A DNA stretch of 64,000 nucleotides from Candidatus Thalassarchaeaceae archaeon (GCA_045568075.1 JBJLBP010000001.1:249232-313231), one strand, 5' to 3'. Numbered from the stretch's first letter, positions 13,602 to 31,509 are shown. Numbers and translations are program-made. Notes: a model not told the origin generated them from the letters alone.

Positions 13602-13880
13602 ATGGATTTGAAGAAGCGATTTGAGCGTGCCACGAAGCGAGTTTGGAGACTCAAAGAACGACCTGACGACATGATTCTGTTGGAGCTTTACGCGCTCTAC
13701 AAACAGGTGACTGAAGGAGATGCCCGAAGCCCGCGACCAATCAGAGACGGTTTGGCCGGAATGGCGAAGTGGCGTGCTTGGCGCAAATTGCGCGGAATCA
13801 CCGTCAATGAGGCGATGGAGCGCTATTGCGGCATTGTAGATAGGCTGATGTCTGGCGGTGCAAATCCTGCTGTGAGTTGA
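13602..13880 (+). CDS. Acyl-CoA-binding protein (ACBP)
   Basis: 92 aa; LELYALYKQVTEGD...KWRAWRKLRGITVNEAMERY matches the ACBP fold signature. Confidence 0.7.
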   Translation: MDLKKRFERATKRVWRLKERPDDMILLELYALYKQVTEGDARSPRPIRDGLAGMAKWRAWRKLRGITVNEAMERYCGIVDRLMSGGANPAVS

Positions 13881-14383
13881 GTAGAATGATCGATGAAGCC
13901 CGACTTCAAAGCGAATTGAAGAGGCTTTCAGGCTGGGCGCGCTTCCGCGCTTTCACAGTTCTCTCGATGCCTTCGGCCGCTTTTGTCGGATTGCGTTTTG
14001 TTCGTGCTGATGAAGAAGTCTGTGTGACTTCTATACCCGGCGGTTGGCGCTCGCAAAATCCTTTCAAAACGATGTACTGGGCGGCTCAAGGTATGGCGGC
14101 CGAACTTGCGACAGGCGTCGTTCCATTTGCGATTTCGCGAACTACTAAGCGCGGTATCCGTATGTTTGTTGTTGGTACAGAAGCGACATTCGTCAAGCGC
14201 GCGAAGGGCAAGATTGTATTCACTTGCGAAGATATTGCTGCCGCGCGCGCAGCGATCGAAGAGACCCTTACTACCGGTGAGAAAATCGATCTCGATCTAC
14301 GCGCTGTCGGACGAGACTCGGATGGAGACATTGTCTCAGAGTGGGTGTTCAAGTGGAACTTCCGTGCTCGCGAGAACCAGTAG
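13877..14383 (+). CDS. Hotdog-fold thioesterase-like protein (DUF4442/PaaI-like)
   Basis: 168 aa, translationally coupled within the beta-oxidation operon. Weak family-level resemblance only. Confidence 0.5.
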   Translation: MSRMIDEARLQSELKRLSGWARFRAFTVLSMPSAAFVGLRFVRADEEVCVTSIPGGWRSQNPFKTMYWAAQGMAAELATGVVPFAISRTTKRGIRMFVVGTEATFVKRAKGKIVFTCEDIAAARAAIEETLTTGEKIDLDLRAVGRDSDGDIVSEWVFKWNFRARENQ

Positions 14384-14405
14384 AACCGCAAGGTGGGGGA
14401 GAAAC

Positions 14406-15377
14406 ATGGGAATGAGTACATCTTTCACCGAGCACGCTGGAGTCGAACACCCAATCATCTGCGGAGCAATGTATCCATGTTCGAACCCCGAACTAGTTGC
14501 CGCCGCCGCTAATGGCGGCGGAATGGCAATCCTTCAGCCAGTCTCGCTAACCTACGTTCACGGCTGGGATTTACGAGAAGGAATCCGCTACATTCGAAGC
14601 CTCACGGACCAACCGATCGGCTTCAACGCCCTCATAGAAAAAGGCTCCAAGAAGTACATTGAGCGCATGTCGGAATGGATCGATATCGCTCTTGAGGAAG
14701 ACATCCGCTTCTTCGTCACCTCCCTTGGAAAACCCGATTGGGTTTGTGAGCGCGTACACGCAAAAGGTGGATTCGTCTATCACGATGTGACCACACGCAA
14801 GCACGCGTTGAAAGGAATCGAATGCGGAGTCGACGGCCTAATCTGTGTCAATAACCGAGCCGGCGGACATCTTGGAACCGATTCAGCAGCAGCGATGTAC
14901 GCCGAACTAAGCGATCTTGAAACTCCCCTAATCTGCGCGGGAGGCATCGGTAGTGAGGAGGAATTATCCGAGGTCATGGCAATGGGTTATGCTGGGGTGC
15001 AAATGGGTACTCGATTCATCGCTACGAGTGAATGTAATTCTCCAGATGATTACAAGCAAGCGATCGTCGATGCCAGTGAGGAAGACATCGTCTGGACCAA
15101 CCGACTCACAGGAGTCCCGATATCGGTAATTCGCTCTGAAGGCTACCAGCAAGAAAATAGCTGGGTGATGCGAAAATGGCTTTCAAGCCGTTGGAAACAC
15201 TCTGCTAGAATGTTCCTCAATTTGCTTTCCTTCACCAAACTTCGTCGCCTCGAAAAAGGCAAGGGAAGCACAGCGAAGAAAAAGGAATTTTTCTCGGCGG
15301 GCAAGAGTGTTGAAACGGTTCACAGCGTCGAATCAGCGACCGTAATTATGGCCCGTCTTGGGCAATCTCTTGCTTAG
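14406..15377 (+). CDS. Nitronate monooxygenase / FabK-like FMN-dependent enoyl reductase family protein
   Basis: MGMSTSFTEHAGVEHPIICGAMYP...AGGIGSEEELSEVMAMGYAGVQMGTRFIAT matches NMO/2-nitropropane dioxygenase motifs. The upstream extension of ORF 14106 is rejected (overlaps the preceding gene). Confidence 0.8.
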   Translation: MGMSTSFTEHAGVEHPIICGAMYPCSNPELVAAAANGGGMAILQPVSLTYVHGWDLREGIRYIRSLTDQPIGFNALIEKGSKKYIERMSEWIDIALEEDIRFFVTSLGKPDWVCERVHAKGGFVYHDVTTRKHALKGIECGVDGLICVNNRAGGHLGTDSAAAMYAELSDLETPLICAGGIGSEEELSEVMAMGYAGVQMGTRFIATSECNSPDDYKQAIVDASEEDIVWTNRLTGVPISVIRSEGYQQENSWVMRKWLSSRWKHSARMFLNLLSFTKLRRLEKGKGSTAKKKEFFSAGKSVETVHSVESATVIMARLGQSLA

Positions 15378-15466
15378 AAAATGAGCCACCGATGGCTCCG
15401 AAGTAAACCGTATTTAGCGGCCTGGAAATTAGGATAAACTTCCGGTTAGAGAATCATACGAAACAA

Positions 15467-15490
15467 CCCATCGGCAATGGCATCGATGGG
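15467..15490. terminator. Hairpin CCCATCG-N10-CGATGGG in the convergent intergenic region
   Basis: Perfect 7 bp inverted repeat seen in sequence between the NMO gene (+) and the PIN-domain gene (-). Function unproven. Confidence 0.2.
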
Positions 15491-15566
15491 ATATCTCTCT
15501 CACCCGGCAGGGTCATCATAACAACTCCACAAGTGGTACACATTGAATCTACGATAGCGACGTTGC

Positions 15567-18500
15567 TCATAATACTTGTTTTGGCCGACTAACGTGTCTA
15601 TTCAATTGCTGAGCAGTCCAAATCGCCCCAAATCCGAAGCTATCATGCAACGCGCGCGCTATTAGCATGAAATCAGAATCGCGTGTTGCTACCAGCACGC
15701 AGCCAACATCTGGGATGGTTGAGGCTGCGTGAACAGCAGAATCTCGCATTATATCGAGATCACCCAACTCCGGGTAAATCTCATGGCCATCGATCACACT
15801 GCGAGGAGGCGGATCATCTCGGGCCAATTGCTTAGCCTCAGAGATCTTCTCGTAAATTGCAGAATGCCTAACCAAGAAAGAGTCGAGATCGACGGCGTCC
15901 TTCTCTTCAGCATCAACCTCGGCCCTGAACGATCCGAAGGTCCTCAGAACCGATTGTACCCGCTCCTGTAACAGTTCAGGGCTAACCGTATCATCCCAGG
16001 ATTTGCGATCGACATATACATCGTTGAACAGAGCCAGAGCAACCTTGGGATTTCGAGTACGGTTGAGGAATTCACCTTGTGCCGAGGAAGGGATGCAGAG
16101 GTGAACACGGCCTTCCTTTGCCCTACGCTTGAGCATCCAAACAAAGGCCCTCTCAACAGTCCAGTCGAAAGTACCGAAGCTATCTTGTGAAATTTGACTG
16201 AGCAGGTCATCCTTCAGTGCGTCGATGAGGATATTCGTGTCGACGAGCACCAATGGCCTTAGCGCGAGGTGGTTGAGAGAACTTCTCTGACGTACTGGAA
16301 TCGTGCGACTGTGGCGGCGGAATAGGGCCTTTTGTGAGCGGACAAGAGTCTGAATTTGCCGCAAATCAAAATTGCCTGATTGAATCGCAGTTTCGAACAT
16401 TCTAAGACCGCGAATTGTAGATATTTCAGCAACTTCCTCTGCGATGAGAGTGATCTCGAGAACGTCCTTTCGTTCATTGAGTTCGAGCAAGAATCTACCT
16501 TCCAATTCGCTTCTCCTACTACTCTCCCTTCGGCGCATCATCATCTGCGCTGCGAGCACTCTTCCACGGAATGGGTCTTCCGGTAGTCTATGTTCAGAGG
16601 CATAACGCAGCGCCCGATCGAGAACTTCGAGTCGGCGCTTCACAGCTTCTCTGTCGATACCATCTATCTCTGGGTCCCCTGGTTCTCGCTCGGTGGTGTA
16701 TTCGATGATGCGTTGGGTGGCGACTTCGTTTCTTCCTGCGACCGCGTCGGCACAGGTGCGCAGATACAATTGGAATCTCGAAGTCACCGATGCGATCAAT
16801 TCTGGGTGATGATCGATCAGGTTGACAGCCTCTTTCCATCCTCCCGCATGAGCGAATTCGATGAGTGATTTTCGAAGTAGTAGTGCAGAGCGTTCGAAGT
16901 CGTCCCGAACCTTCATCGCCGCATCGCGGAAGGAACGAGCCGCGTTGATACGATCATCCTTCGAACGGGCGATGGTGGCTCTGACTGTTTGATGCTCGGC
17001 AGAGCCATTGTCGTGCTGTCTGTACCACATCTCAAGCTCAGGTATCGCAGCATCGTGCTCGATTACAAGATCGGTGGCAAAGCGAATGCTACGCATCGCC
17101 ACTTCGTTATCCAAGCATAGCGTACCTAGAGCAGCCAGAGCGGAATCGCTCCGTTCTTCTATTCCACTCTGCAAATCCATCGTCGCTCGATTCAACCGAA
17201 GCGCGTTGACTAGGGCTGTGAATAGGCTGCGCTCAAGATATGTCAGTTGAGCATTCATCACAGTCACTTCTAGAGTTTCGATTCGGTTCTCTCGGACCAA
17301 TCCATCTCCTTCCGCAGAGAGAGCTCGACGGACTTCATTGAGAGCGAGCACGCCGTCGGAATCCAACTTGTCGTGAACAGCATCCATTCCAGATGAAATG
17401 CCGCTCAGTAATGCGATTAGTGAAGATGCCGCGCTGGTCAAAACCTCATCCTCATCAGTATCCGCCAGAGCGAGTATTGCTCGCCTGCGCATGATTTCGA
17501 GATCCTCGAGCACCGTCACAGCTTGTGAAGCAGCGATTAGATGCCAGACGAGAAGAGCTCGGTGAGGGAATTGCGAAGCGAGCTCTGTGTGCGCGAGGAA
17601 TTCTCGGCTGAGGCCACCAACATCGGCTGAGAGTGTGTGAATATCGAGAACCTCTTCCTCGATTCCAAGTTCCTTGGTCGAGAGGATATTTGCGGCTCGT
17701 TTCCTGATGTTCAGAGGAGCTGCGTCATCGCGCATAACAGTGAGAACGACTTCATCGGAGGCCTTCTCCATCGCCTTGACGATTCTATCGACCAATCCAC
17801 CTTCGTCAATCTGATTGATTAGACTCAGAGCAGTGCGCATCTGTGACTCTCCATCGATATCCAAACCATCGAGCATCCCTGATGCTTCGTCGGAACGTCC
17901 GGCTCCAACTAAGCCCTCGATGACGCTCCAACGGAGAGAGTCGGGAGCGGAAAGACCCGCTTCATTGAGTATTTGCAACCCACCCATCAAGAAATCGACC
18001 TCACTGTCCTCATCCACCTCGAATTTCTTCCAAGCTTCAAGGCGAATCGCCGACGAAAGTGCATTTTCACCATCTTTGGTAACGCCATCCCGCCACTCAC
18101 CTCCATCTCCTACTCTCAGTGAGAGAAGTTGAGATTGAGCCGAGGCAATCTCAGCAATATGCTCGGAATCGATTGCCGCGAAGAGCGAAATTGCCTCTGT
18201 ATCTTCACTTGCTGCGAGCAGCATTGCTTCCAAAACCGCCGCATCACCACCCAATCCGCGAAGAGCGGGATCCATCCAAGCCTTCCACTTCCGCGGTCGT
18301 GCTCTACCTGAACGAAGGTCGCGGATGATTTGCTGCATCGCTGAAGCCTGGTGAATATCGAGGTTTAGTGTAGAGGCATCCAACCACTCGAGCAAGGAAT
18401 CACGGTCCATTGGATCGAAGTCAGCACGGATGACCCATTCATGAGAATCGACAGATACAGTATCTTCCTCTGAGATGGGAAATCGGCCTAATTCTGCAAG

Positions 18501-18950
18501 AATAGGGGCTTCTCGAGCCATTCTTTCCCAAACGGGATGAACGCCCGATTCGCATTCGACACGGAGGGTAGTGGCCTCTTCATCCCACTCACTCTTCCAC
18601 GAGTCCCCCATCTTCTGCTTCTGAGCAATCAAGACAGCGAGTCGATAGGCGGGGGATTCCTTCGAACCGATTACCGTTCGAGGAGTTTCTAATCGATCCC
18701 TTGCACTGGTTCCACCACTACGGCCACCTCTTCGTCCAATTCGTCGAGATCCTCTTGCCGGGCGAGTATCAGAAGCATCGGGATCGGCTGATTCAGGAGC
18801 CGTCTTGTCAGCAGCAAGCAAAGCCAAAGCTTTCCATTCTCGGCTCAGAAGACCCCACGCCTTTGGGCGTCTGACCTCCAGTTTTCTCCTACCCGGATCG
18901 TCGCCTGCTCGCTGCAGTTGTTCGACGCAATCGAGCAGGTAATCCTCCAA
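15567..18950 (-). CDS. Large (1127 aa) uncharacterised protein with C-terminal PIN-like nuclease domain
   Basis: C-terminal ~270 aa begin RPLVLVDTNILIDAL and contain later acidic motifs (VLVATRDSDF) typical of PIN domains. N-terminal ~850 aa is helix-rich with no motif I recognise. Confidence 0.6.
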   Translation of the reverse strand: MEDYLLDCVEQLQRAGDDPGRRKLEVRRPKAWGLLSREWKALALLAADKTAPESADPDASDTRPARGSRRIGRRGGRSGGTSARDRLETPRTVIGSKESPAYRLAVLIAQKQKMGDSWKSEWDEEATTLRVECESGVHPVWERMAREAPILAELGRFPISEEDTVSVDSHEWVIRADFDPMDRDSLLEWLDASTLNLDIHQASAMQQIIRDLRSGRARPRKWKAWMDPALRGLGGDAAVLEAMLLAASEDTEAISLFAAIDSEHIAEIASAQSQLLSLRVGDGGEWRDGVTKDGENALSSAIRLEAWKKFEVDEDSEVDFLMGGLQILNEAGLSAPDSLRWSVIEGLVGAGRSDEASGMLDGLDIDGESQMRTALSLINQIDEGGLVDRIVKAMEKASDEVVLTVMRDDAAPLNIRKRAANILSTKELGIEEEVLDIHTLSADVGGLSREFLAHTELASQFPHRALLVWHLIAASQAVTVLEDLEIMRRRAILALADTDEDEVLTSAASSLIALLSGISSGMDAVHDKLDSDGVLALNEVRRALSAEGDGLVRENRIETLEVTVMNAQLTYLERSLFTALVNALRLNRATMDLQSGIEERSDSALAALGTLCLDNEVAMRSIRFATDLVIEHDAAIPELEMWYRQHDNGSAEHQTVRATIARSKDDRINAARSFRDAAMKVRDDFERSALLLRKSLIEFAHAGGWKEAVNLIDHHPELIASVTSRFQLYLRTCADAVAGRNEVATQRIIEYTTEREPGDPEIDGIDREAVKRRLEVLDRALRYASEHRLPEDPFRGRVLAAQMMMRRRESSRRSELEGRFLLELNERKDVLEITLIAEEVAEISTIRGLRMFETAIQSGNFDLRQIQTLVRSQKALFRRHSRTIPVRQRSSLNHLALRPLVLVDTNILIDALKDDLLSQISQDSFGTFDWTVERAFVWMLKRRAKEGRVHLCIPSSAQGEFLNRTRNPKVALALFNDVYVDRKSWDDTVSPELLQERVQSVLRTFGSFRAEVDAEEKDAVDLDSFLVRHSAIYEKISEAKQLARDDPPPRSVIDGHEIYPELGDLDIMRDSAVHAASTIPDVGCVLVATRDSDFMLIARALHDSFGFGAIWTAQQLNRHVSRPKQVL

Positions 18951-19048
18951 TCCAAATCACTCCGGTGAGCCTTTCGCCCCTTCCCTCCATACATCAACAC
19001 ATCGCCTTGCTAAGCAAGGCGTGAAAGAGAGAACTCAAGACCTCCGTA

Positions 19049-19537
19049 ATGCAGCGACGACTCGTGGACCCAACACAGGTGTTCGTTCTACTACTCCACC
19101 CCTTCGCGGCACTGCTCGTCATTCGAGAGTTTGTCCGGCAGCGCGATTGGCGCAAACAGAGCATCGCACTGAAGGGCGCTGAGAGGGCTGCTGCGCTTGA
19201 GCGCCACGAGACTGAGGGGGGGCGACTTTTTCGCCTAGTTATTGCCGTCATCAGCCTCGCCTTCTTGGCTCGTATCGCATCGGATGTTCTGGTTGGTGAA
19301 GAACTTGGAATCGAGACCTTGATCCCTGGCCATTTCCATGGTTGGGGTGGTTTACTTGGGCTTGGGTTGATGACATATTTGTGGAGTCTTGGGCGCAAGA
19401 CCAGCGCGAAGAAGGCTGCTGGTGAATCATTCGCACGTGTGAAGGATTTGCACGGTAGGTTATCGGATGTTATGATGGGGCTAATCCTCATTCACGCCTT
19501 CCTCGGTTTCCTCTACCTGCTACAACTCATCGGATGA
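19049..19537 (+). CDS. Small integral membrane protein (hypothetical)
   Basis: 162 aa with 3-4 hydrophobic segments. Chosen over the antisense ORF 18994..19491, which is S/R-rich and not protein-like. Confidence 0.4.
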   Translation: MQRRLVDPTQVFVLLLHPFAALLVIREFVRQRDWRKQSIALKGAERAAALERHETEGGRLFRLVIAVISLAFLARIASDVLVGEELGIETLIPGHFHGWGGLLGLGLMTYLWSLGRKTSAKKAAGESFARVKDLHGRLSDVMMGLILIHAFLGFLYLLQLIG

Positions 19538-19555: not shown

Positions 19556-20554
19556 TCATCGCTGAGCCCACATCGACAACCATTCTGTAAGATTCTCTGC
19601 AATGTCTCTGTGCTCTACTCCGCGCTCAACCCTCTCGCCCGAATCGAGTGGTTGGATGCGGCAACCGCAGGCATTTGCATGCCCGCCACCATCAGGGTCG
19701 AATCGGGTTGCGAGGCGGGTCAAATCGTAGATTCCTCCGCCTCGATGTAGGAATGAATTGGTGTAAAAAGAGGCTGAGACAGGATATCGATCTTCCTCGC
19801 CAAAGCTTGCTCCAACATCTCCGTGAACAACAAGACAGGCATCGCAAGCCTCGCCAGCGAGCGCGGTGACGCGGTACCCGTTTGAGCGCACGCCCATATC
19901 TTCCAATCGCACCACTGCGAGCCTATCGATGATTTCCAAGCGCTCGCGTATCAATTCATCCGCACGCGCATAACGCTCCCCCTTAGCCACCATCACGGGG
20001 GCGATTCGTTCCGACGCAAGAATATCCTCAGCCGACTCGCCCCGAGTTAGTGCCTCCAGAATTGCCAGCGCTACCTCATCATCGCCACCGATTACACGGC
20101 CCAACCAGACAACTGGGTGATCTGAGAGGTACTCATCCTTGGTTACAGCACCACCATCCAATTTGTCGACCCATTCCATAAGTGCCGCGAGATCGCTAAC
20201 ATCGGCGACCTCACCGACCAAATCGAAAGCGATCCGCGCCGCAGAAAGCGTCGGTCTCCAAACGATGACCATCTCTTCGTCGATTTCCGTACCATCATCA
20301 GTATTATCCGGAGCATTCGATTGATGATGGTCAATACTCAATCCACATGCCGGATGCCGCGGCAAATCACACACAGCAGTCTGCCGATCGATATGCTCGT
20401 CGAGCATTCCCGCGCGGAGCGCGCCGGGATGTCCAAACACAATCTCCGCTTCGGGCCACCAACGTCGCAAAATGGCTCCTGTTACTACACCGTCAAGGTC
20501 CGAATCCGTCACAATTCGACGGATGTCGAGGGAGAGTGCGCGGTGAGTCATCAT
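19556..20554 (-). CDS. DHH/DHHA1 family phosphoesterase (NrnA-like oligoribonuclease/pAp phosphatase family)
   Basis: TDSDLDG, SIDHHQSN (DHH motif) and C-terminal DGGGHANACG (DHHA1 GGGH). Start uncertain (ORF open to 20617). Confidence 0.75.
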   Translation of the reverse strand: MMTHRALSLDIRRIVTDSDLDGVVTGAILRRWWPEAEIVFGHPGALRAGMLDEHIDRQTAVCDLPRHPACGLSIDHHQSNAPDNTDDGTEIDEEMVIVWRPTLSAARIAFDLVGEVADVSDLAALMEWVDKLDGGAVTKDEYLSDHPVVWLGRVIGGDDEVALAILEALTRGESAEDILASERIAPVMVAKGERYARADELIRERLEIIDRLAVVRLEDMGVRSNGYRVTALAGEACDACLVVHGDVGASFGEEDRYPVSASFYTNSFLHRGGGIYDLTRLATRFDPDGGGHANACGCRIQPLDSGERVERGVEHRDIAENLTEWLSMWAQR

Positions 20555-20688
20555 GCGACTGCGCCGCGCCCCCCCTATCATCTGTTTGCAATCTCCAACT
20601 TCACCACCATGCCCCAAATAATCGATGTTCTAAGGTGGAATTTAGCAATTATACAGTTGACGCGAGAAGGAGAATCGACATATGCAAG

Positions 20689-21792: not shown

Positions 21793-22548
21793 TCAATCGT
21801 CCCCGCCGGCAATAGGGCTTCTAGAAGATGCGTTAAGATTCTCTAGGGAGGTATTTATCGCATCTGTCCAAGCGCTGTCGACAGACTCCCAGCCGCCGAT
21901 TGCTTTGAGTTCGGCAACATGCTCCTTGTGAGATGGTTGGTCATCGAGATGTTGGTGAATTAATGCAAGTGCGGAGTGACTCATGGCGTTCAACCACTGA
22001 TCATCCATATCCCAAGATCGCTCAAAGTGGGAAATCGCTCCACGCGGTCCGCGCAGAAGTCCTCGTTCGACTTGCCGAAGGCCAGATTTCGACCAAGTGA
22101 TACCTTGCACGCCGACAACCAGTCCTCGGAATGCTAGGTAAATTTCGAGGAGGATTACTATCGAAGCGGCGCCGAACGAGATGATTTGGTATGTTGGATC
22201 CATACCAGCCCACCCTTCGGTCATCAGGCTCATTGTTCCAACGCAAAGCAGAACGCCGCCGAAGGGTGCGACCAACACATCTCGTTCGGTTTCAACCATA
22301 TGCCTAACTCCGTAGACCACCGCTAGCCCTCCAAATACTGCGGCGACAACTGCCGGAGCGAGAATCGTTGTTTCCCTCGGTGCACTCCGGCTGATTAGGA
22401 AGACTAGTCCCAATCCCAAACTGAGCCAGCCGAAGCGGCTACCATACTCGGGAAATGGCTGGTGCCGTGAGTAGTAAATCGATACCGCACCAATCGCTAA
22501 AAAGAGTAAAATCCATGCATCCAGAAGTGGCATATCCGAGCTACTCAT
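21793..22548 (-). CDS. Integral membrane protein (hypothetical, ~6 TM)
   Basis: 251 aa, multiple hydrophobic spans. Confidence 0.5.
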   Translation of the reverse strand: MSSSDMPLLDAWILLFLAIGAVSIYYSRHQPFPEYGSRFGWLSLGLGLVFLISRSAPRETTILAPAVVAAVFGGLAVVYGVRHMVETERDVLVAPFGGVLLCVGTMSLMTEGWAGMDPTYQIISFGAASIVILLEIYLAFRGLVVGVQGITWSKSGLRQVERGLLRGPRGAISHFERSWDMDDQWLNAMSHSALALIHQHLDDQPSHKEHVAELKAIGGWESVDSAWTDAINTSLENLNASSRSPIAGGDD

Positions 22549-22874
22549 TCGACTTCACCTCGCGGCTCGTCGCGCCACCCCGGCTTCCAGAAATTATCGT
22601 CATCGAGCCACTTCAACCACTCGTCATCTGTGGCTCGTAACAGGCGTAGTGCGCGCCTGTCAAGTCCATCACGCAGTGCATCATCGACATCTCCCTCGGA
22701 GTGTGAATCAGTCCATTCGATTTGCATCTGTCGCACGAGCCTGCGTCCTTCCTCAGGATTGTCGAAATTCATCTCACAGGCCTCTCTCAAGTCCTGTAAC
22801 CACACTCGTGTTCCACGGATGTGCAGATCATCCTGCAGTGGCTTCGACTTTCGCTTGAACGGCCACCAACTCAT
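22545..22874 (-). CDS. Small acidic hypothetical protein, translationally coupled to downstream membrane protein
   Basis: 109 aa; stop/start overlap with 21793..22548. No recognisable motif. Confidence 0.35.
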   Translation of the reverse strand: MSWWPFKRKSKPLQDDLHIRGTRVWLQDLREACEMNFDNPEEGRRLVRQMQIEWTDSHSEGDVDDALRDGLDRRALRLLRATDDEWLKWLDDDNFWKPGWRDEPRGEVE

Positions 22875-23532: not shown

Positions 23533-26500
23533 GTGGTCGGAATGAACAAAGAGATACAGACTTGGTATGGTCGAGAAAATAGGAAGAAGAGCACGTCAGC
23601 CCTGATGATGGTAGTGCTGATGCTACTGAGCACACAGATGTACAATTTCATCGGTGCTGAAGAGGCTGAAACCAGCCTTGAGGGGCCGGAAGAAACTCCT
23701 GCTCGGACTGCTTACCAGCAGTTCTACCAGAGTGGCGGAGCTAGTGCAGGCGAGACTCAAGGCCAGCCGGCTTCGACCGCTGACTTCCAGCACCCAGCCT
23801 TCTCTGATGCGAATTGGGTCGATCCAGCCTCATACCAAGGCAAGATCTCCGACCCCTCCATTCTCCTGACCGACCCAGGATACGGATTCCACCTTGAGGA
23901 GACCAATACCGAAGACCACGACAATGATGGAATCAATGATCTCGATGACCTCGATGACGACAATGATGGAATCAGCGATCTCATCGAGCGCTTCGACGGA
24001 TGCTATGGAACCGATCCATTCGACCACGATAACGACGGAATCGATGACGAGAGTGATTGGGATGACGATAACGATGGAATCCTAGAGGGCCCTATTGACT
24101 ACTCACAAGGCTCCGATCCTTGGAATGTCAGTGCCGACCGTTACGTCATGCCGAATGTAGTTCATCCATGGACTGGAACTCCGGTTGGCACCGGTTACCG
24201 AATCGATCAGAATCTGATGGATCACGATAACGATGGCGTCACCGATGAAGACATCGATGGCAGTGGGCGTGGCTCCTACGATGAGGACGACGACAACGAC
24301 GCTCGCATCGATCAATTCACTTGGCCATGCGATTTCGATGGTGACGGAGCTCAGGATTACTTCGACGACGACGACGATAACGACGGCGTCGTAGATCTCT
24401 GGGACTCACACCCTTGGGATGCCTCAATTACCACTAACATCACCGCCACAGCACCTCTTTGGGATGATTGGTATCAGTGGGTGTCTGCTGAGACTCATGA
24501 TATCGAAATCAGCCCAGGAAACTTGTTCTCTCCTCGAGCATTAACCATCAATGAGGGCGATACTGTTGTATGGACCAACGCTGATTCTCAAGATCACACA
24601 GTGACATCAGATATCGGCCTCTTCGACAGCGGTACCATCGTTCCTGGCGCAAGCTTCACATTCACCTTTGACAATGCAGGGACATTCAGCTATGTTTGCA
24701 ATATCCATCCGGCTATGACTGGCACAATCACAGTTCAGTCAACGAGTGGTTCCGACAATACTTACTCCGAATATATCGGCGGTGTCGACTATGTTTCGAT
24801 GGAAGCAAATGTGTGGCACCCTAGAAATCAATCCTTTACCGAAGTTGTCGATGGTGATCTCGACGGTGATGGAATCCCGAACTTCCTTGATCCTGACAAC
24901 GATAACGACGGAACACCTGACTCAGCCGATACTGATGATGACAACGATGGCTTACTCGACATGTACGATGTCGACGACGACAATGATGGAATATGGGATG
25001 AATGCATGCAACTCGATACAAACTCGGATGGCGAAGGCGATTATCCAAATTCCTTCGATATCCAAACTCCTGGGCGTGATTGTGAGATTGATTACGACAG
25101 GGACGCGGACGATGATCGATTTCGTCCAATTGATATGGATTACGATTTGGTATGGGATTGGATGGATCCAGACATGGGAGCACTTGAACTCGATGAGCTC
25201 GACAACCCGAATGGCGCTCCTCGGAACGATCCGGATGACGAGCCCTACGATCTAGACAATGATGGCGTCCTAAACGAAGCAGACCCGTACATGCTTGCTA
25301 CAGAGGAGCAAGTCAGTGAGTGGGACTGCGCCACTCAGACTAACCCCAATCCACAGAATTCCGACATGAATTGCACCGTCGCACGTAAGTCGTACACCGG
25401 AAATAATGACTGGGATGGTGACGGTCTGAATAACTGGGAGGACCGTGATGATGATAACGACGGAATCCTCGATTGGCTAGATATTGATCCGAATTGTGAT
25501 TTCGACGATGACAATGATTTGCATCTACTCAATGGTTCCCGCTTCCGTGACGATGGCCCGAATGACATCGATACCGATGTTGACGGGGATGGTTTGGCGA
25601 ACGACGAGGATTGGGACGACGATAACGATGGAATATCAGATTACTACGACCCCGATGACGGAAACTGTGGAGTGGTCGACCAAGACCAGACCGACCCCTT
25701 CGCGACATATTATGGATACTCACACGGTGATGGAGACATAATCGACGGTTCAGACGACAGCGACCTTTGGGCACAATTCGAGAATACGCACTGGAAGATG
25801 TGGTGGCACTTCAATCCGTTCACAGAGGAAAATGGATTCATCTATCCTCACAATGGCTACGACGATTCTACCGTGCCTCTGACAAATGGGCAGATTCCTG
25901 AGATGTATTGGTATGTCCTCATGCATTGGAGCCCTTGGAATGGAGCTAATTATTTCGATATTGACGTAGACGGCGATTCACTTCAGAATGGAATCGACGT
26001 CGATTCGGATGGAGATGGACTTCCCGATTGGTGGGATCAAGATGAAGGGAATGATGGAGTTCTGGATGTTAATGATCCAGGCCAAGGAGGCTCATTCGAC
26101 AATAACGAGTGTGGTTACACATTTTGGTGGCTTCTAATCGCCCAACAAGCCATTGAGCAAGCATGTGGACTGCCGTACGCCTGGCTTTACGGTTACCCTG
26201 TTATTCCGGCCAGTCGGACGAACGGAATGTCATTCACTATTCCCTATTCCAGCCGACCCGATGCAGATATGGACCAAGGGGCTTACAATGGAACCAATTC
26301 ACAAGGTCAGTGGACCTGTGAGACTCAATGTTGGCATTTCGATTTCTTAGGTCAAGGTGATGCTGGACCGAGCGCGGCTGTAAATTACAACCAGATGAAG
26401 GATAATCGGGATTTGTATACCGCTTGGGTCGGAATCACTTTCGGATTCTTCCAATGGACTGCTGACAGTAATGCCAATTTATTCCCCGATGAAGTCGCTG

Positions 26501-29500
26501 ATTTATTGAATAATGATGTTGATCCCGATGACGATTGTGGCGCTCCCATTCCAGGAAATTTAAATCCTCAATGTATGGTGAATGACACAGCAGATTTGGA
26601 TGATGATTTCGACGGAGTCTACGATCATTGGGATGTCGACGACGATAACGATGGAATCTGGGATTATTTCGAAATCGACAGTAATGACGATCTCGACGAC
26701 GACGCCAATATCGATGCCTCGAATTTCTTTACCGGCACAAATTGTGATGACAATGACGACGATGGAACCGACACGGATCCAGACGACGACGGTTGGTACC
26801 AAGCCGTCTGGGACAAAGGTGTGTTAGGACAGGGACTCCTATTCCCTGTGTACTACGATGTCGACAATGATAACGACGGAGTCCCTGATGGAGAAGACCC
26901 GGATGACGATAACAATGGAGTTTCCGACGCATTACAAGAAACTCTTTGCTTCGTCGGTGAAGAACAGAGTGTTTGGGATCATGATAACGACGGTATCCTT
27001 GACTGGGCTGATGACGACTGGGACGCCGATGGATTGGTCAATACTCTTGAGTTGAATACAGCCACACCGTTCATCTCTCCATGGGATCATGATAACGACG
27101 GATTGAGAGATGACATCGATCTCGACGACGATTCGGACGGTATGCTGGATAAGGACGAGATTATGCTATGGCCATCTCGCTTCGGTCAGGAATCAACAAA
27201 CCCGTGGGACCACGACGATTACGGAAATGGAACAGGTCCCGCTAACCCCTCTGATCCATTCACCGGTCCGGACGCGATTGACGAGGATGATGACAACGAC
27301 GAGAGGCCCGATCGCGATTGGGACCATCTCGAAGAGGACTGGTCGAATTCCTCAGATTGGGATAGCGATAACGACGGAATCCTTGACGAGGATGACAAGG
27401 TGCCTACGAGAATCAATCTCACGAGCGCTAACGTCCTCTGGCTCGATGCTGTAAATCCAGCCGTTTTCCGTGGTACTGTGAACTGGCTCGACCCTGATAC
27501 AGGCGTCTTCGAGCCAGCTCCAGACCTGCCGGTTCAGATTTCTATCGAATGGGCTCGAAATGGCACCCTTGCCCTCGAGACCGTCGATGTTCTGACCGAT
27601 GCGGCTGGAGCTTTCGTAGTCGGACAATTCCTCTTGCCAGAGGATCTCATTGTAGGTCCTAACACGACTTACAATGTCTACGCGGAAGTCACAGAAATGT
27701 TCTATCACGACGGTTCACAGACCGAACCGATACCTGTAGAAGTTCGCGCCAATACATCGATTGACTACGTCGCATGGACATACTTCCGCAGCGATGAGCA
27801 ACCACTCTTCACAGATTACAAGGTGCATTATGAGGCTGATTGGGATCGAGGAATCTTCGACAATCGAATTCCTAACGCACCAGTCTCCTTCCGCGTTCAC
27901 GGCGGACCATTCGGCAACCACACCCACCCGACCATCTTCGATGGATACGGCTACGGTTACCGCGCCGATTCAGGTGGATGGGTCTCACTAACCTTCGTCC
28001 AAACCGCCGGCGCACAGGGTCAGTGGAAGCAGGTTCAGTGGAATTCAACCATGGATAATGGCGTTGGCAAGCTACCAGGCGGCTACGAAGAAATCGTCTG
28101 GGATGACAATGCGAAAGATCACTTCGTCCTCGGACGTTATGACTACACAAACACCAGTTTGCCGATTGGTGATTATGCATTCATTGGTTTCGCCCGCCCC
28201 GACTTGGGCGATGAATGGCCATTCCCATACCTTGAGCAGTCCGAGACAGAAGCGTTTGCTATCCGCTCGATGCACCGAATGTACATCGAAGCTGACATGT
28301 TTACGCCATCGACTCGGCCGGTTTACTTCTGGGACACCACACAGTTCACTGGATCGTCCTTCGGAGCGTGGAGGGCTCTCTTCCACCAACCAAGTCTTGA
28401 CACCGCTGGCCTCGCCTACGAAGACGTAAGCCTCGGCAAGCCGTATGCGATGACTTGGGATGGAACTCCTGAGGGACTAACTGGAGAGAGTTCCCGACTA
28501 CGTCCGTTCCTCTCTTCGAACGGAACTCATTGGCGTATCGGCATGCAGAACGGTGGCGACTTCAATGTGCCACCTTGCGGACCAGTCGACCCGGTTGATC
28601 CGAATAGTGACGTTCGCTGCGAGATTATCCCTGAGATGTTTACCGGAGAGACTCTGAGAGTCATCGGAAGCGTTTGGAATCGGACTTTGGTTCCATGGCC
28701 GCATGACCCGATGACGCTACAGGTCGATCTCGATCGTAATGGAATCTTCGCGGGCTCGCAAGAGACTGGATACGCTCGAGCACCACAGATGGTGAACGGT
28801 GTCGCGACTTTCGATTACAACTGGACCTGGTATTCTCAATATGCAGCAGGTCACTACGGAATACGTGCTGACTTCACCAACTCGAACTACTACTTCACAG
28901 GAAACCAGAGTTCGGTCCTCGCTCCTACGGGCGCTTACCTCAATGTCTCAGTCATTGGAACAACCGAGTTCAAGGAATTGCTTGAACCGCGCCTATATCG
29001 TGGCCAAAATCGCACAATCGAGGTTCAGTTGCTTGATAATTCGTTGCAGCCGCTGAAGAATTCTCAGATTAATTATGTTTGGAGTGCGGATGGCACCAAT
29101 GGCATCGCTGAGACTGACGGAACGGGTTGGTTCTCGGTCAATCTAACGATTGAGAAGGATCACAATCTGGGCAACTTCACCCTCTCTTACAACTACCCAG
29201 GTGATCCTCGCCACCAAGGAACCTCTGGAACGATGGATCTCTGGGTTGTCTCACGCACTTACATCACACTGCAAGGTACAACCCCGAACATACGCTCCAA
29301 TGGAGATATCTGGGAATTCTCAGCACAGGTGACAGATGACAATCGCACAGCCATCATCAAGGATTCCGGACAGGCTTTGGACGGATGTGGTGAGAATGGC
29401 GGAGAAGTTCTCCTGATTATGGAAGGAACCGACTTCGACGATCGAACCCATAGACAAATCGTCGAGACCCTATGTCCGAACGCAGGAAACATCCACCACG

Positions 29501-31509
29501 AGATGGTGTTGGATCCACAACTCCTGCGCGACGACCCGCAATCCTTCCTACCGGATGGATTCGGTCCAGTAAACGTCGTATTGCGCTTCGAGGAGAACCT
29601 ACCTCACGAGGGCTGTGAACCACTCGACGCAGATGCGATGAGCACTTCCGGCGCATGGGACCCATGCGCCCAGATGGTGAACAGCGATCACTTCCGCAGA
29701 GTCATGCAGTTCCAAGTCGATGGGTTCAGCCTCATCGGCCGAACAGTTCTCAACGTCGACGATCAGATTGTTTACACTTCTGAAATCGATCCATCGACCG
29801 GACAGCCAATCGAGAAGCCCATGGTCGTCACCGGCCAGCTCGTTGACGAACTCGGATCTAACCTCTCTAACCGCGCTGTGCGCGTAACATACGAGATGGT
29901 CGGCTCTGAGACGGGAATCGTGGGTTGTCTACCAGGAACCTCAAACATGGACGGATTCTTCGAGATCACCTGCCCGCTTTCCGGCGTTCAGGCGGGACAA
30001 GCCCGAGTGAAGGTCGAGTTCAATTCATACGAGAATAACGACCGCTACCGCTACCACAATGCAAGCGTAACACGACTGTTCCCGGTCTTCTCGAACTCGA
30101 CTATGCACCTGCAAGAAATTGGTCCGTTCCGAAATGACATCGATTCGTACACCTTCCAGAATGGCTCGGTTTTCCCGGTGCTGTATCTCAAGGAGTCATT
30201 CCACCTCGATGCTAGGTTAACTCAGACGAATGGTAATCCGATTGGCGGTAAGTGCCTGAACATCTACCTCGATCCTGAGGTTAACACTCGGCCAATCGCC
30301 ACTTCGATTACGCGTGACGGAACTGGTGAAATCGAGTGGTTCAGCGGTGACCCGGAAGACAATCCCAGTCGCCGAGGAGTCGAACCGACATCTGAGATGA
30401 TGGAAGGATTCAGAGTAGTTAGAATCGCATACGAACCGACTAAGGAATTACCTGGCGGATGTCGTGCCGAGACAACTCCGGTTGTCAATGGTTCCTTCAT
30501 CGATATCGAAGTCCTCGTCAGGAGCCGCGTTGACATCCTACTGAAGAACCACTGGTCAAATCCAGATGGATATCAGGAAGGAGATTGGATCAACGGATCG
30601 GTCGCAATTCTGCGCGACCGACTCGACCTCGCGGTCGAGCACCAAACGGTGATCTTCACCTACCAGTATTGGAATGCCGAGGAAGGCATGTGGCTTCCAC
30701 ACAACGTGGTCTACGCTACTACGAACGAATTGGGTGTGGCATCGTTTAGCTTCGAATACTCGGGTGAAAATATACCTGGAGAACTCGAATGTAGCCAGGC
30801 CGGTTATTGTATCGACGAAGGAAGATGGCAAGTCATAATCCACTTCAAGGGCTCACACGAGTTTGAAGAGGAATATCTCAACAATACGCCTGAAATCTAT
30901 CTTGGTGAATTAGTCGCGAAGGGCGATACGAGCTTCTTCACGGTGCAGGTATTGACGATTCTAGGAATCGCAATGGCCTTCGCTCTGATGGTCGGCGCAA
31001 TCATGTATCGCAATTACATTGAGCGCCGACGCATCGAGATTCTGCGCGGAATACTCACCGACTCGCTAATGTCGCTAAAGGCGTCGAACGAATACATCGA
31101 CACCATCTTCAACTGCTACAAGGAATTAGTACGATTCTTCCGCAGTCGAGGCGCGATGAAGAAGGTCTACGAGACCACGCGAGAATTCGAGGATGCTGTG
31201 AGCACAATGCTCAGCGGCATTGCGCCGCCAGAGGATCTCAATGTCTTCTTCTCACTCTTTGAAGAAGCAAGGTACTCTGACCACGAGATTGGTGCAGACC
31301 AGCGAGACCGAGCCATCGGTGCGCTGCAGTCCATCATCAACCACATCAGTGCCTCTTTGGGCGAAGGAATGCTAAACCGAACCACTGCTAATGAGTCCGG
31401 CCTTTACGGCTCAGTCATCAAGGCTGGCTCGTTCGTTGACTCCGAGGGTCAAGAGCGCATCGCCGGAATCGATGACGGTTCAGACGGCGACGGCGGCTTC
31501 CGAATCTGA
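23533..31509 (+). CDS. Giant (2658 aa) cell-surface protein: signal peptide, ~40 thrombospondin-type-3-like Ca-binding repeats (DxDxDGxxDxxD), embedded plastocyanin-like cupredoxin domain, large beta-rich region, C-terminal TM helix and ~170 aa cytoplasmic tail
   Basis: N-terminal hydrophobic signal. Dozens of DHDNDGI.D..D.DDDNDG repeats from ~23900-27400. Cupredoxin segment GDTVVWTNADSQDHTVTS...FSYVCNIHPAMTGTITV (His/Cys/His/Met). TM FTVQVLTILGIAMAFALMVGAIMY near 30930-31010. Tail with ...FEEARYSDHE... motif. Confidence 0.85.
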   Translation: MVGMNKEIQTWYGRENRKKSTSALMMVVLMLLSTQMYNFIGAEEAETSLEGPEETPARTAYQQFYQSGGASAGETQGQPASTADFQHPAFSDANWVDPASYQGKISDPSILLTDPGYGFHLEETNTEDHDNDGINDLDDLDDDNDGISDLIERFDGCYGTDPFDHDNDGIDDESDWDDDNDGILEGPIDYSQGSDPWNVSADRYVMPNVVHPWTGTPVGTGYRIDQNLMDHDNDGVTDEDIDGSGRGSYDEDDDNDARIDQFTWPCDFDGDGAQDYFDDDDDNDGVVDLWDSHPWDASITTNITATAPLWDDWYQWVSAETHDIEISPGNLFSPRALTINEGDTVVWTNADSQDHTVTSDIGLFDSGTIVPGASFTFTFDNAGTFSYVCNIHPAMTGTITVQSTSGSDNTYSEYIGGVDYVSMEANVWHPRNQSFTEVVDGDLDGDGIPNFLDPDNDNDGTPDSADTDDDNDGLLDMYDVDDDNDGIWDECMQLDTNSDGEGDYPNSFDIQTPGRDCEIDYDRDADDDRFRPIDMDYDLVWDWMDPDMGALELDELDNPNGAPRNDPDDEPYDLDNDGVLNEADPYMLATEEQVSEWDCATQTNPNPQNSDMNCTVARKSYTGNNDWDGDGLNNWEDRDDDNDGILDWLDIDPNCDFDDDNDLHLLNGSRFRDDGPNDIDTDVDGDGLANDEDWDDDNDGISDYYDPDDGNCGVVDQDQTDPFATYYGYSHGDGDIIDGSDDSDLWAQFENTHWKMWWHFNPFTEENGFIYPHNGYDDSTVPLTNGQIPEMYWYVLMHWSPWNGANYFDIDVDGDSLQNGIDVDSDGDGLPDWWDQDEGNDGVLDVNDPGQGGSFDNNECGYTFWWLLIAQQAIEQACGLPYAWLYGYPVIPASRTNGMSFTIPYSSRPDADMDQGAYNGTNSQGQWTCETQCWHFDFLGQGDAGPSAAVNYNQMKDNRDLYTAWVGITFGFFQWTADSNANLFPDEVADLLNNDVDPDDDCGAPIPGNLNPQCMVNDTADLDDDFDGVYDHWDVDDDNDGIWDYFEIDSNDDLDDDANIDASNFFTGTNCDDNDDDGTDTDPDDDGWYQAVWDKGVLGQGLLFPVYYDVDNDNDGVPDGEDPDDDNNGVSDALQETLCFVGEEQSVWDHDNDGILDWADDDWDADGLVNTLELNTATPFISPWDHDNDGLRDDIDLDDDSDGMLDKDEIMLWPSRFGQESTNPWDHDDYGNGTGPANPSDPFTGPDAIDEDDDNDERPDRDWDHLEEDWSNSSDWDSDNDGILDEDDKVPTRINLTSANVLWLDAVNPAVFRGTVNWLDPDTGVFEPAPDLPVQISIEWARNGTLALETVDVLTDAAGAFVVGQFLLPEDLIVGPNTTYNVYAEVTEMFYHDGSQTEPIPVEVRANTSIDYVAWTYFRSDEQPLFTDYKVHYEADWDRGIFDNRIPNAPVSFRVHGGPFGNHTHPTIFDGYGYGYRADSGGWVSLTFVQTAGAQGQWKQVQWNSTMDNGVGKLPGGYEEIVWDDNAKDHFVLGRYDYTNTSLPIGDYAFIGFARPDLGDEWPFPYLEQSETEAFAIRSMHRMYIEADMFTPSTRPVYFWDTTQFTGSSFGAWRALFHQPSLDTAGLAYEDVSLGKPYAMTWDGTPEGLTGESSRLRPFLSSNGTHWRIGMQNGGDFNVPPCGPVDPVDPNSDVRCEIIPEMFTGETLRVIGSVWNRTLVPWPHDPMTLQVDLDRNGIFAGSQETGYARAPQMVNGVATFDYNWTWYSQYAAGHYGIRADFTNSNYYFTGNQSSVLAPTGAYLNVSVIGTTEFKELLEPRLYRGQNRTIEVQLLDNSLQPLKNSQINYVWSADGTNGIAETDGTGWFSVNLTIEKDHNLGNFTLSYNYPGDPRHQGTSGTMDLWVVSRTYITLQGTTPNIRSNGDIWEFSAQVTDDNRTAIIKDSGQALDGCGENGGEVLLIMEGTDFDDRTHRQIVETLCPNAGNIHHEMVLDPQLLRDDPQSFLPDGFGPVNVVLRFEENLPHEGCEPLDADAMSTSGAWDPCAQMVNSDHFRRVMQFQVDGFSLIGRTVLNVDDQIVYTSEIDPSTGQPIEKPMVVTGQLVDELGSNLSNRAVRVTYEMVGSETGIVGCLPGTSNMDGFFEITCPLSGVQAGQARVKVEFNSYENNDRYRYHNASVTRLFPVFSNSTMHLQEIGPFRNDIDSYTFQNGSVFPVLYLKESFHLDARLTQTNGNPIGGKCLNIYLDPEVNTRPIATSITRDGTGEIEWFSGDPEDNPSRRGVEPTSEMMEGFRVVRIAYEPTKELPGGCRAETTPVVNGSFIDIEVLVRSRVDILLKNHWSNPDGYQEGDWINGSVAILRDRLDLAVEHQTVIFTYQYWNAEEGMWLPHNVVYATTNELGVASFSFEYSGENIPGELECSQAGYCIDEGRWQVIIHFKGSHEFEEEYLNNTPEIYLGELVAKGDTSFFTVQVLTILGIAMAFALMVGAIMYRNYIERRRIEILRGILTDSLMSLKASNEYIDTIFNCYKELVRFFRSRGAMKKVYETTREFEDAVSTMLSGIAPPEDLNVFFSLFEEARYSDHEIGADQRDRAIGALQSIINHISASLGEGMLNRTTANESGLYGSVIKAGSFVDSEGQERIAGIDDGSDGDGGFRI
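23900..27400 (+). repeat. Low-complexity coding repeat region (GAYAAYGAYGG = DNDG units) inside the giant gene
   Basis: Recurrent gat-aac-gat-gg / gac-gac-gat-aac-gac-gg units seen many times. Confidence 0.7.

Follow-up and report, generated by a model that had tools for sequence, protein, structure and literature searches.

In a 64,000-nt stretch of DNA from a Candidatus Thalassarchaeaceae archaeon (GCA_045568075.1, JBJLBP010000001.1:249232-313231; hereafter the window), we have analysed a gene on the minus strand at 15567..18950, referred to here as solenoid-PIN. Judging from its sequence motifs and its predicted structure, residues ~891-1122 of the 1127-residue product very probably form a PIN nuclease domain of the VapC-like group, in which the helical insert is unusually long (~55-100 residues), and the first 890 residues are modelled as an alpha-solenoid resembling tetratricopeptide repeat (TPR) proteins. 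The type of enzyme is familiar; the architecture is new. A protein whose full-length copies are labelled 'hypothetical' throughout the databases gains in this way a candidate identity, namely a predicted PIN endonuclease on a helical platform with defined catalytic residues. The gene and the parts of its nuclease domain are given below, with conservation counted in an alignment of 45 members reaching down to 24% identity.

15567..18950, minus strand: complete solenoid-PIN gene, 1127 codons, TTG start at 18950 and stop codon at 15567-15569 (from the list of open reading frames, ORFs, and the translation)
15585..16280, minus strand: PIN-like nuclease domain, residues ~891-1122, ~230 residues (AlphaFold2 model, Foldseek, Pfam)
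16233..16241, minus strand: D904-T905-N906 at the end of strand 1, with the predicted first catalytic Asp (45/45)
16071..16073, minus strand: E960 in the helix after strand 2, the VapC-type catalytic Glu position (44/45)
15759..15770, minus strand: E1061 and D1064 in YPExGDxDIM after strand 3, the third acidic position (44/45 each)
15672..15680, minus strand: D1091-S-D1093 in ATRDSDF at the end of strand 4, the fourth acidic position (45/45 each)
15885..16049, minus strand: approximate core of the helical insert, residues ~968-1022, between strand 2 with its Glu helix and strand 3

The acidic positions, which together would supply the complete metal-binding set of a VapC-type PIN, are conserved more strongly than any other columns of the protein. 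D904, D1091 and D1093 are invariant in the alignment, as are P1060 and F1094. D904-T905-N906 lies in the context LVLVDTN within the strand-1 motif VLVDTNILIDAL (residues 900-912), and E960 sits in an IPxxAxxE motif on a helix starting 2-3 residues past strand 2. From this strand and the acidic motifs downstream of it, both present and conserved, the original prediction had called a PIN domain by eye, a call now backed by the acidic conservation, the modelled fold, the fold matches, the recurrent Pfam matches and the insert excision described below. It had also asked whether the acidic residues might be absent on alignment, and 44-45 of the 45 members keep them. Only the extent needed correction, from ~270 to ~230 residues.

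An AlphaFold2 model of residues 885-1127 (predicted local distance difference test score, pLDDT, 91.2; predicted template modelling score, pTM, 0.89) displayed a five-strand alpha/beta/alpha fold. Its elements follow the order b1-a-a-b2-a...b3-a-b4-a-b5-a, with five parallel strands in the PIN order, located at domain residues 14-19, 66-68, 172-175, 198-204 and 223-226. Between strands 2 and 3 the same model places ~100 helical residues; conservation dips at residues 962-1021, the insert being the least conserved part of the PIN domain. Searching the PDB with Foldseek, we obtained the VapC structure 7vwo_A as top match (probability 0.89, template modelling (TM) score 0.55 on the target, E 0.11) and Rrp44 in eleventh place, while the two best matches in BFVD were a phage 'PIN like domain' protein (probability 0.85) and a Medusavirus PIN protein (probability 0.75).

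Weak but recurrent signals of the same kind were revealed by Pfam. For 29 natural domain sequences, 16 matches to the PIN clan were recorded (PIN eight, PIN_12 five, NYN two and PIN_4 one), and unrelated families mostly appeared once each, with WH_Egal in three members. PIN_12 (PF16289) reached at best 18.4 bits (E 0.0031), one member being aligned over the full model (positions 1-172 of 172); members of the family score 12-18 bits with it, and its gathering cutoff of 32 bits was not reached. With 55 insert residues (84-138 of the domain) taken out, 10 of 25 members matched Pfam PIN. Two insert-excised members scored 24.6 and 24.4 bits (E 4-5e-5) against the Pfam PIN cutoff of 23.6 bits, and one such alignment covers PIN positions 1-118 of 120. 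PIN domains with large insertions, this means, escape standard profile searches.

Proteins in the PIN domain-like superfamily (clan CL0280) share an alpha/beta/alpha sandwich with five parallel strands and acidic residues placed at the C-termini of the core strands (PMC5499597), and the predicted structure of solenoid-PIN displays both the fold and the acidic residues. Within this superfamily, the VapC-like group is defined by a Glu that sits in a helical insertion following strand 2 and preceding the next core helix (PMC5499597). E960 occupies this position, the acidic residues as a set follow the VapC type, and the domain has neither a helix-three-turn-helix (H3TH) nor a helical arch. The identification as PIN is argued for by the convergence of motifs, fold, fold search, recurrent weak profile matches and insert excision. 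No current Pfam family holds the PIN domain by threshold, and the whole protein has no significant match in Pfam, NCBIfam or PADLOC. Sequence searches of the PDB with full-length and PIN-core profiles yielded chance matches only (KRIT1, FIH and a DC-SIGNR repeat artefact). The PIN-core profile, searched at E<=10, returned fragments of the family and nothing beyond it, so the PIN domain forms an isolated sequence cluster.

The rest of the protein comprises the following parts.

16281..18950, minus strand: all-helical body, predicted TPR-like alpha-solenoid, residues 1-890
18708..18779, minus strand: disordered Arg/Gly-rich loop, residues 58-81, isoelectric point (pI) 12, with RIGRRGGR (residues 70-77) at 18720-18743
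18528..18545, minus strand: GVHPVW, the most conserved N-terminal motif, residues 136-141
16281..16910, minus strand: solenoid segment next to the PIN domain, conserved and basic, residues 681-890

In the full-length AlphaFold2 model (pLDDT 84.4, pTM 0.66), the protein is all-helical up to residue ~890, with ~55 helices of 8-20 residues, and only residues 58-81 are disordered (pLDDT <50). A helical N-terminus had been expected at ~850 residues; its helical nature was borne out by the model, and its length is ~890. Matches to the full model in the PDB, which were almost all TPR scaffolds among the top 20, included Ski3/TTC37, Ctr9, IFT-A, APC/C and TTC7B (E 4e-5 to 1e-2, probability 0.9-1.0), at TM scores of 0.1-0.2, 10-13% identity and a root-mean-square deviation >20 A. 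The model thereby supports a TPR-like alpha-solenoid as a fold class and nothing more specific, and the top rank of Ski3 should not be read as homology. At the sequence level, no recurrent Pfam family was found in the solenoid across 23 members, and the sole TPR signal was one TPR_6 match (E 0.09) in one of 23 full-length members. The suggestion of TPR- or HEAT-like repeats can hence be kept for the predicted fold class, at these low TM scores, and finds no echo in TPR sequence profiles. Neither a Walker A motif nor a hydrophobic segment of membrane length occurs in the protein.

The N-terminal region is by no means free of motifs, as had been thought. RIGRRGGR, GVHPVW, FAHAGGWKEAV, RFQLYLR and LPxxPFxGRVxAA are conserved across the family. 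The loop carries an RRxGR core in 45/45 members and a net charge of +5 within an otherwise acidic protein; in GVHPVW, G136 is invariant and H138, P139, V140 and W141 are each found in >=90% of the 45 members. Conservation peaks locally at residues 122-151, 692-721 and 782-811. Residues 681-890 constitute the most conserved and the sole basic part of the solenoid (pI 9.3 versus 4.5-5.3 elsewhere) and harbour FAHAGGWKEAV (699-709), RFQLYLR (725-731) and LPxxPFxGRVxAA (789-801), whereas residues 166-470 are the most variable, with a mean identity of 30%. A zinc site composed of C8, C133 and H138 was considered and dropped, C8 not being conserved in the alignment.

The ORF is a genuine intact gene, neither a chance ORF nor a fusion nor a pseudogene, and the coordinates and the length of 1127 residues originally given for it are exact. 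The N-termini of the homologs begin at the same residue as that of the window protein, with M-E-D-Y-L-L, and a Shine-Dalgarno-like GGAGTGAT, itself conserved, is positioned at 18956-18963, 5 nt 5' of the TTG; the TTG start is credible for these two reasons. A division into two genes, raised earlier as a possible objection along with a pseudogene, was rejected. The only split calls, two ORFs each in the assemblies L087 and L088, break just before the PIN domain in an otherwise collinear gene and go back to one lesion apiece, an in-frame TAA standing at a Glu codon (L087 4865-5001) and a frameshift (L088, ~4965), explicable either by errors of assembly or by knock-outs at strain level.

That the gene is real and under purifying selection is strongly supported by its full-length homologs, which range from 28 to 99% identity, and by its presence in at least 209 species genomes. 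A search of 5.8 billion proteins gave 71 cluster representatives within this range of identity, nearly all of 1,100-1,160 residues (family length ~1,100-1,170 residues). In a hidden Markov model (HMM) search of 1.84 billion representatives, 266 matches were obtained, ~30 of them full-length at 50% clustering and the rest fragments on short contigs; the best 150 of the 266 are family members or fragments only, with no other architecture among them. The figure of at least 209 species comes from scanning a single genome for each GTDB species and covers both Poseidoniales families. All named matches belong to Candidatus Poseidoniales (Marine Group II), the others being metagenome-assembled genomes (MAGs) of unresolved 'Euryarchaeota/Methanobacteriota/Thermoplasmatota archaeon' with the same synteny. 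The gene is present in all Marine Group II genomes that were fetched, with one locus per genome, and no relatives were detected on viral contigs (2.9 million searched). Thalassarchaeaceae (MGIIb) homologs are mostly 39-99% identical to the window protein, with a few loci under this label at 30-35%, and Poseidoniaceae (MGIIa) homologs ~30%, which places the window genome in MGIIb. These data strongly support a vertically inherited, non-mobile gene that is universal in the Poseidoniales.

Two MAG contigs filed as bacterial, L060 (CAXRJJ010000099.1, 'Yoonia sp.') and L062 (NZVR01000136.1, 'Blastopirellula sp.'), also show the Poseidoniales gene order (membrane protein, DHH, NUDIX, adenosyltransferase, solenoid-PIN); because of this archaeal neighbourhood they are most likely mis-binned archaeal contigs. 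As a side observation on annotation, the C-terminal fragments P0344 and P0350 were named 'uncharacterized LabA/DUF88 family' by the JGI pipeline, and full-length copies 'hypothetical', which indicates that the naming depends on fragment length. We take LabA/DUF88 to be a family of NYN/PIN-like nucleases.

Marine Group II archaea are uncultured and among the most abundant archaea of the surface ocean. What is distinctive in their cell biology can be read mainly from lineage-specific core genes, and solenoid-PIN is among the largest of their conserved cytoplasmic proteins.

RNA processing or surveillance, the latter already floated in the original prediction, is the leading idea for what the protein may do. 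That the gene product is one cytoplasmic protein with intact predicted catalytic residues is strongly supported. From the biochemistry of the VapC group, the PIN domain would be expected to cut single-stranded RNA endonucleolytically in dependence on Mg2+/Mn2+. Going by the anatomy, the Arg/Gly loop and the basic segment 681-890 may help to hold RNA near the active site, and the acidic solenoid may dock the nuclease onto a particle or partner such as the ribosome, the pre-ribosome or the RNA-decay machinery. The distribution suggests a housekeeping task in the maturation or decay of RNA that is specific to the lineage: a gene that is universal, single-copy and vertically inherited in the Poseidoniales, set in a housekeeping neighbourhood, points to housekeeping rather than to a toxin or defence. 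Taken as a whole, the reading as a housekeeping, metal-dependent endoribonuclease on a scaffold, active in Poseidoniales-specific RNA maturation or turnover, stands in our view about evenly between right and wrong, and the housekeeping-RNase role within it is given the same balanced weight.

Comparison with known systems helps to place the protein. The VapC PIN RNases (PF01850; Shigella 3tnd, M. tuberculosis 7vwo) have the same predicted fold with five parallel strands and share the four acidic positions, with D-T-N on strand 1, E in the helix following strand 2, D past strand 3 and D-x-D-F past strand 4. Solenoid-PIN, however, is eight times larger, has an 890-residue solenoid in front, a long helical insert and no antitoxin, and its chromosomal gene occurs universally, as a single copy, in one archaeal order. 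PF16289 (PIN_12, formerly DUF4935) belongs to the VapC-like group, bears a long helical insert after strand 2 and is usually monocistronic (PMC5499597). It has this insert in common with solenoid-PIN, for which it is the second most frequent weak match; unlike solenoid-PIN, its proteins are of ~350 residues and mostly bacterial, with an N-terminal PIN followed by an alpha/beta region. A role of the proposed kind is played by archaeal Nob1 and the Fcf1/Utp24-like PIN_9 proteins, chromosomal single-copy PIN endonucleases of the VapC group in rRNA maturation (PMC5499597), although these are small, carry other accessory modules (zinc ribbon) and occur across archaea, whereas solenoid-PIN is confined to a single order and has no Pfam or NCBIfam match to either family.

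In architecture, the nearest parallels are eukaryotic. SMG6 and Swt1 combine a large helical platform, which docks onto a ribonucleoprotein, with a C-terminal PIN endonuclease, a comparison that the original prediction had suggested as well. The likeness in design logic is one of architecture only; SMG6 and Swt1 were absent among the fold matches, and no sequence relation or specific structural relation to them was detected. Ski3/TTC37, Ctr9, APC/C, IFT-A and TTC7 resemble the solenoid as long superhelical arrays of paired helices acting as platforms, yet these scaffolds have no nuclease domain. The 2017 survey of the PIN superfamily makes no mention of TPR (PMC5499597), and the combination of a TPR-like solenoid of ~890 residues, an RGG-type loop and an insert-bearing PIN, restricted to one order and universal there, is absent from it. 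No literature linking Poseidoniales and PIN domains was found.

Several points weigh against the proposed endoribonuclease. PIN is the top fold match in both the PDB and BFVD, at non-significant E values of 0.08-0.15. Among natural sequences, the PIN similarities are each below curated significance, the best being PF01850 at E 9.5e-4, below the gathering cutoff. When aligned by hhalign with Shigella VapC (100% identical to 3tnd_A), used both as single sequence and as a 33-sequence profile, only the D-T-N strand was aligned (D904-T-N to D7-T-N), at ~1% probability; this VapC profile is narrow, its relatives all being >=73% identical (effective number of sequences, Neff, 2). The scaffold assignment draws on low-TM matches of a predicted model that any long alpha-solenoid would give. 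The RNA substrate is assumed by analogy with the VapC-like group, and PIN-like domains include DNA nucleases as well. As regards the surroundings of the gene, conserved gene order in streamlined genomes is no proof of a functional link, and the neighbourhood is mixed, containing a cobalamin adenosyltransferase and membrane proteins too.

The substrate question leads to the first alternative, a DNA-directed structure-specific nuclease of repair, recombination or replication, whose solenoid would recruit it to DNA-processing complexes. FEN and 5'-3' exonucleases, which are PIN-like superfamily members, do occur among the lower, non-significant BFVD matches, and two members of the family faintly match an archaeal ThermoDBP-related single-stranded DNA-binding family (E 0.058). 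The latter matches are, however, at noise level, and the domain has the four-acid VapC motif set and not the 7-8 acids of the FEN type, in addition to the missing H3TH and helical arch. Since its strongest sequence matches, PF01850 and PF16289, both lie in the VapC-like group, we regard a DNA nuclease as unlikely.

Toxins and defence systems commonly use PIN domains as effectors, and TPR-like repeats often serve as sensors. Solenoid-PIN might accordingly be imagined as a defence or abortive-infection effector or solitary toxin, which would set its nuclease loose on cellular or viral RNA once the solenoid has perceived a phage or a stress signal, after the manner of immune proteins that pair a TPR sensor with a nuclease effector, or of VapC toxins. 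Fitting this, the closest solved fold match is a VapC toxin, and the middle of the solenoid (166-470) evolves fastest. A type II VapBC pair, however, consists of a small PIN toxin (~130-150 residues) encoded directly downstream of its antitoxin, a build from which the 1127-residue protein departs; there is no antitoxin-like partner and no co-directional small ORF upstream, where a divergent membrane protein is encoded instead. Nor does it resemble STAND-type (Avs-like) or other known anti-phage systems, for want of a Walker A or other NTPase module and of a PADLOC match. Instead of a patchy occurrence in variable islands, the gene displays fixed synteny as a single copy throughout the order, the 2.9 million viral contigs searched carry no copies, and identity tracks taxonomy. 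The defence role that had also been floated for this gene is disfavoured on these grounds and appears rather improbable.

Another alternative involves the gene next door, together with the spacer that separates it from solenoid-PIN.

19049..19537, plus strand: divergent 162-residue membrane protein with weak cytochrome b561/DUF4079 resemblance
18951..19048, no strand: 98-nt divergent intergenic region between the two start codons
18990-19005, minus strand: order-wide core GCGATGTGTTGATGTA, ending 39 nt before the start codon
19003-19021: clade-specific perfect palindrome CGCCTTGC-TTA-GCAAGGCG
19029-19040: second conserved block TCTTGAGTTCTC

Of all neighbours, the membrane-protein gene is the most tightly linked. 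It stands directly upstream and divergent in 73/76 loci, at a distance of 82-175 bp (as measured from tblastn match ends), even where both flanks are rearranged or the remainder of the block is displaced or missing. In a membrane-coupled system, activity or localisation of the nuclease would depend on this cytochrome-b561/DUF4079-like partner through redox state or tethering, and the persistence of the pair, as well as the constrained spacer length (72-133 nt) and order-wide spacer motifs, would be in line with that. The adjacency, on the other hand, may stem from one compact bidirectional promoter serving both genes in streamlined genomes, and three loci (L048, L052 and L080) have kept the nuclease gene and lack the partner. 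The family assignment of the partner, moreover, is sub-threshold (Ni_hydr_CYTB, E 0.019; DUF4079, E 0.14, in Pfam), its homologs bearing 'weak' or 'faint' DUF4079 marks. Such a coupling is accordingly given little credence. The same low expectation applies to a bolder version of the RNA-processing idea, by which solenoid-PIN would be the catalytic core of a Poseidoniales-only RNA surveillance or processing machine, analogous to SMG6- or SKI-like factors, with expression or localisation coupled to the cytochrome-b561-like neighbour via the bidirectional control region; if true, RNA turnover in the most abundant archaea of the surface ocean would be tied to their membrane or redox state. Lastly, a catalytically dead PIN fold serving as pure scaffold or RNA-binding adaptor, similar to SMG5, a pseudo-enzyme among the eukaryotic PIN proteins, was raised since some PIN proteins are pseudo-enzymes, has no direct pointer in its favour and is highly improbable in view of canonical acidic positions kept in 44-45 of 45 members.

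Turning to the spacer itself, its length is mostly 82-106 nt among 74 non-identical spacers, in which the GCGATGTGTTGATGTA core is recognisable order-wide. Among loci with proteins 68-78% identical, the spacer is near-invariant, its DNA being more conserved than the flanking coding sequence. The palindrome CGCCTTGC-NNN-GCAAGGCG is identical in ~25 MGIIb loci and decays elsewhere by one-sided changes, and different palindromes lie near the same place in other clades. By its position, the spacer is probably a compact bidirectional promoter/operator acting at the DNA level. A noncoding RNA or structured leader was considered and rejected: there was no Rfam match at E<=10, folding was unremarkable (z-scores -1.2 and -2.2), and none of the changes in the hairpin was double-sided and compensatory across 57 alignable spacers.

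The wider neighbourhood forms no operon. On its conserved upstream side, the next gene is the following.

19556-20617, minus strand: DHH/DHHA1-type phosphoesterase of 353 residues with the motifs DSDLDG, DHH and GGGH

This protein matches the nanoRNA/pGpG hydrolase PggH (7d62_A, E 1.3e-6) and has no Pfam match even at E<=1; it looks like a divergent DHH/DHHA1 phosphoesterase missed by current models. Its gene lies two genes upstream of solenoid-PIN, next to the divergent pair, in 55/71 loci. Further upstream come genes for a NUDIX hydrolase and a cobalamin adenosyltransferase, two unknown genes and a gene for an RlmH-type SPOUT methyltransferase. A theme of RNA turnover would fit the nanoRNase-like and NUDIX neighbours, which do not prove one. 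Two overlapping genes on the minus strand at 21793-22548 (a 251-residue membrane protein) and 22545-22874 (109 residues) have no family assignment and are co-conserved with the block order-wide, the 109-residue protein at up to 90% identity.

The downstream side is less constant. The gene had been described as convergent with a beta-oxidation operon, which is true of the window, and in only 25/80 related loci does it converge with the cluster of nitronate monooxygenase (NMO), DUF4442, ACBP and beta-oxidation genes. As to a hairpin reported between the convergent genes, a 6-bp palindrome (GAGCCA-CCGA-TGGCTC, 15383-15398), lying just past the NMO stop, with a T-rich run after it on the minus strand, and an imperfect repeat at 15460-15497 are indeed there. 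The palindrome is the sole terminator-like feature between these genes and a weak one, and a downstream terminator hairpin was set aside, as the number of terminator-like sites in the region (6) is near that in shuffles (3.7 +/- 1.7). The NMO ORF at 14106-15377 on the plus strand (423 residues) overlaps the DUF4442 gene (13877-14383, plus strand) by ~280 nt; with homologs of 325-351 residues, its true start is probably near 14400.

Beyond the upstream block, a giant ORF at 23533-31509 on the plus strand encodes 2658 residues extremely rich in Asp/Asn-Asp-Gly repeats (calcium-binding-like) with a C-terminal membrane anchor. Its homolog at locus L005 shows cupredoxin matches, and the protein is presumably secreted or located at the cell surface.

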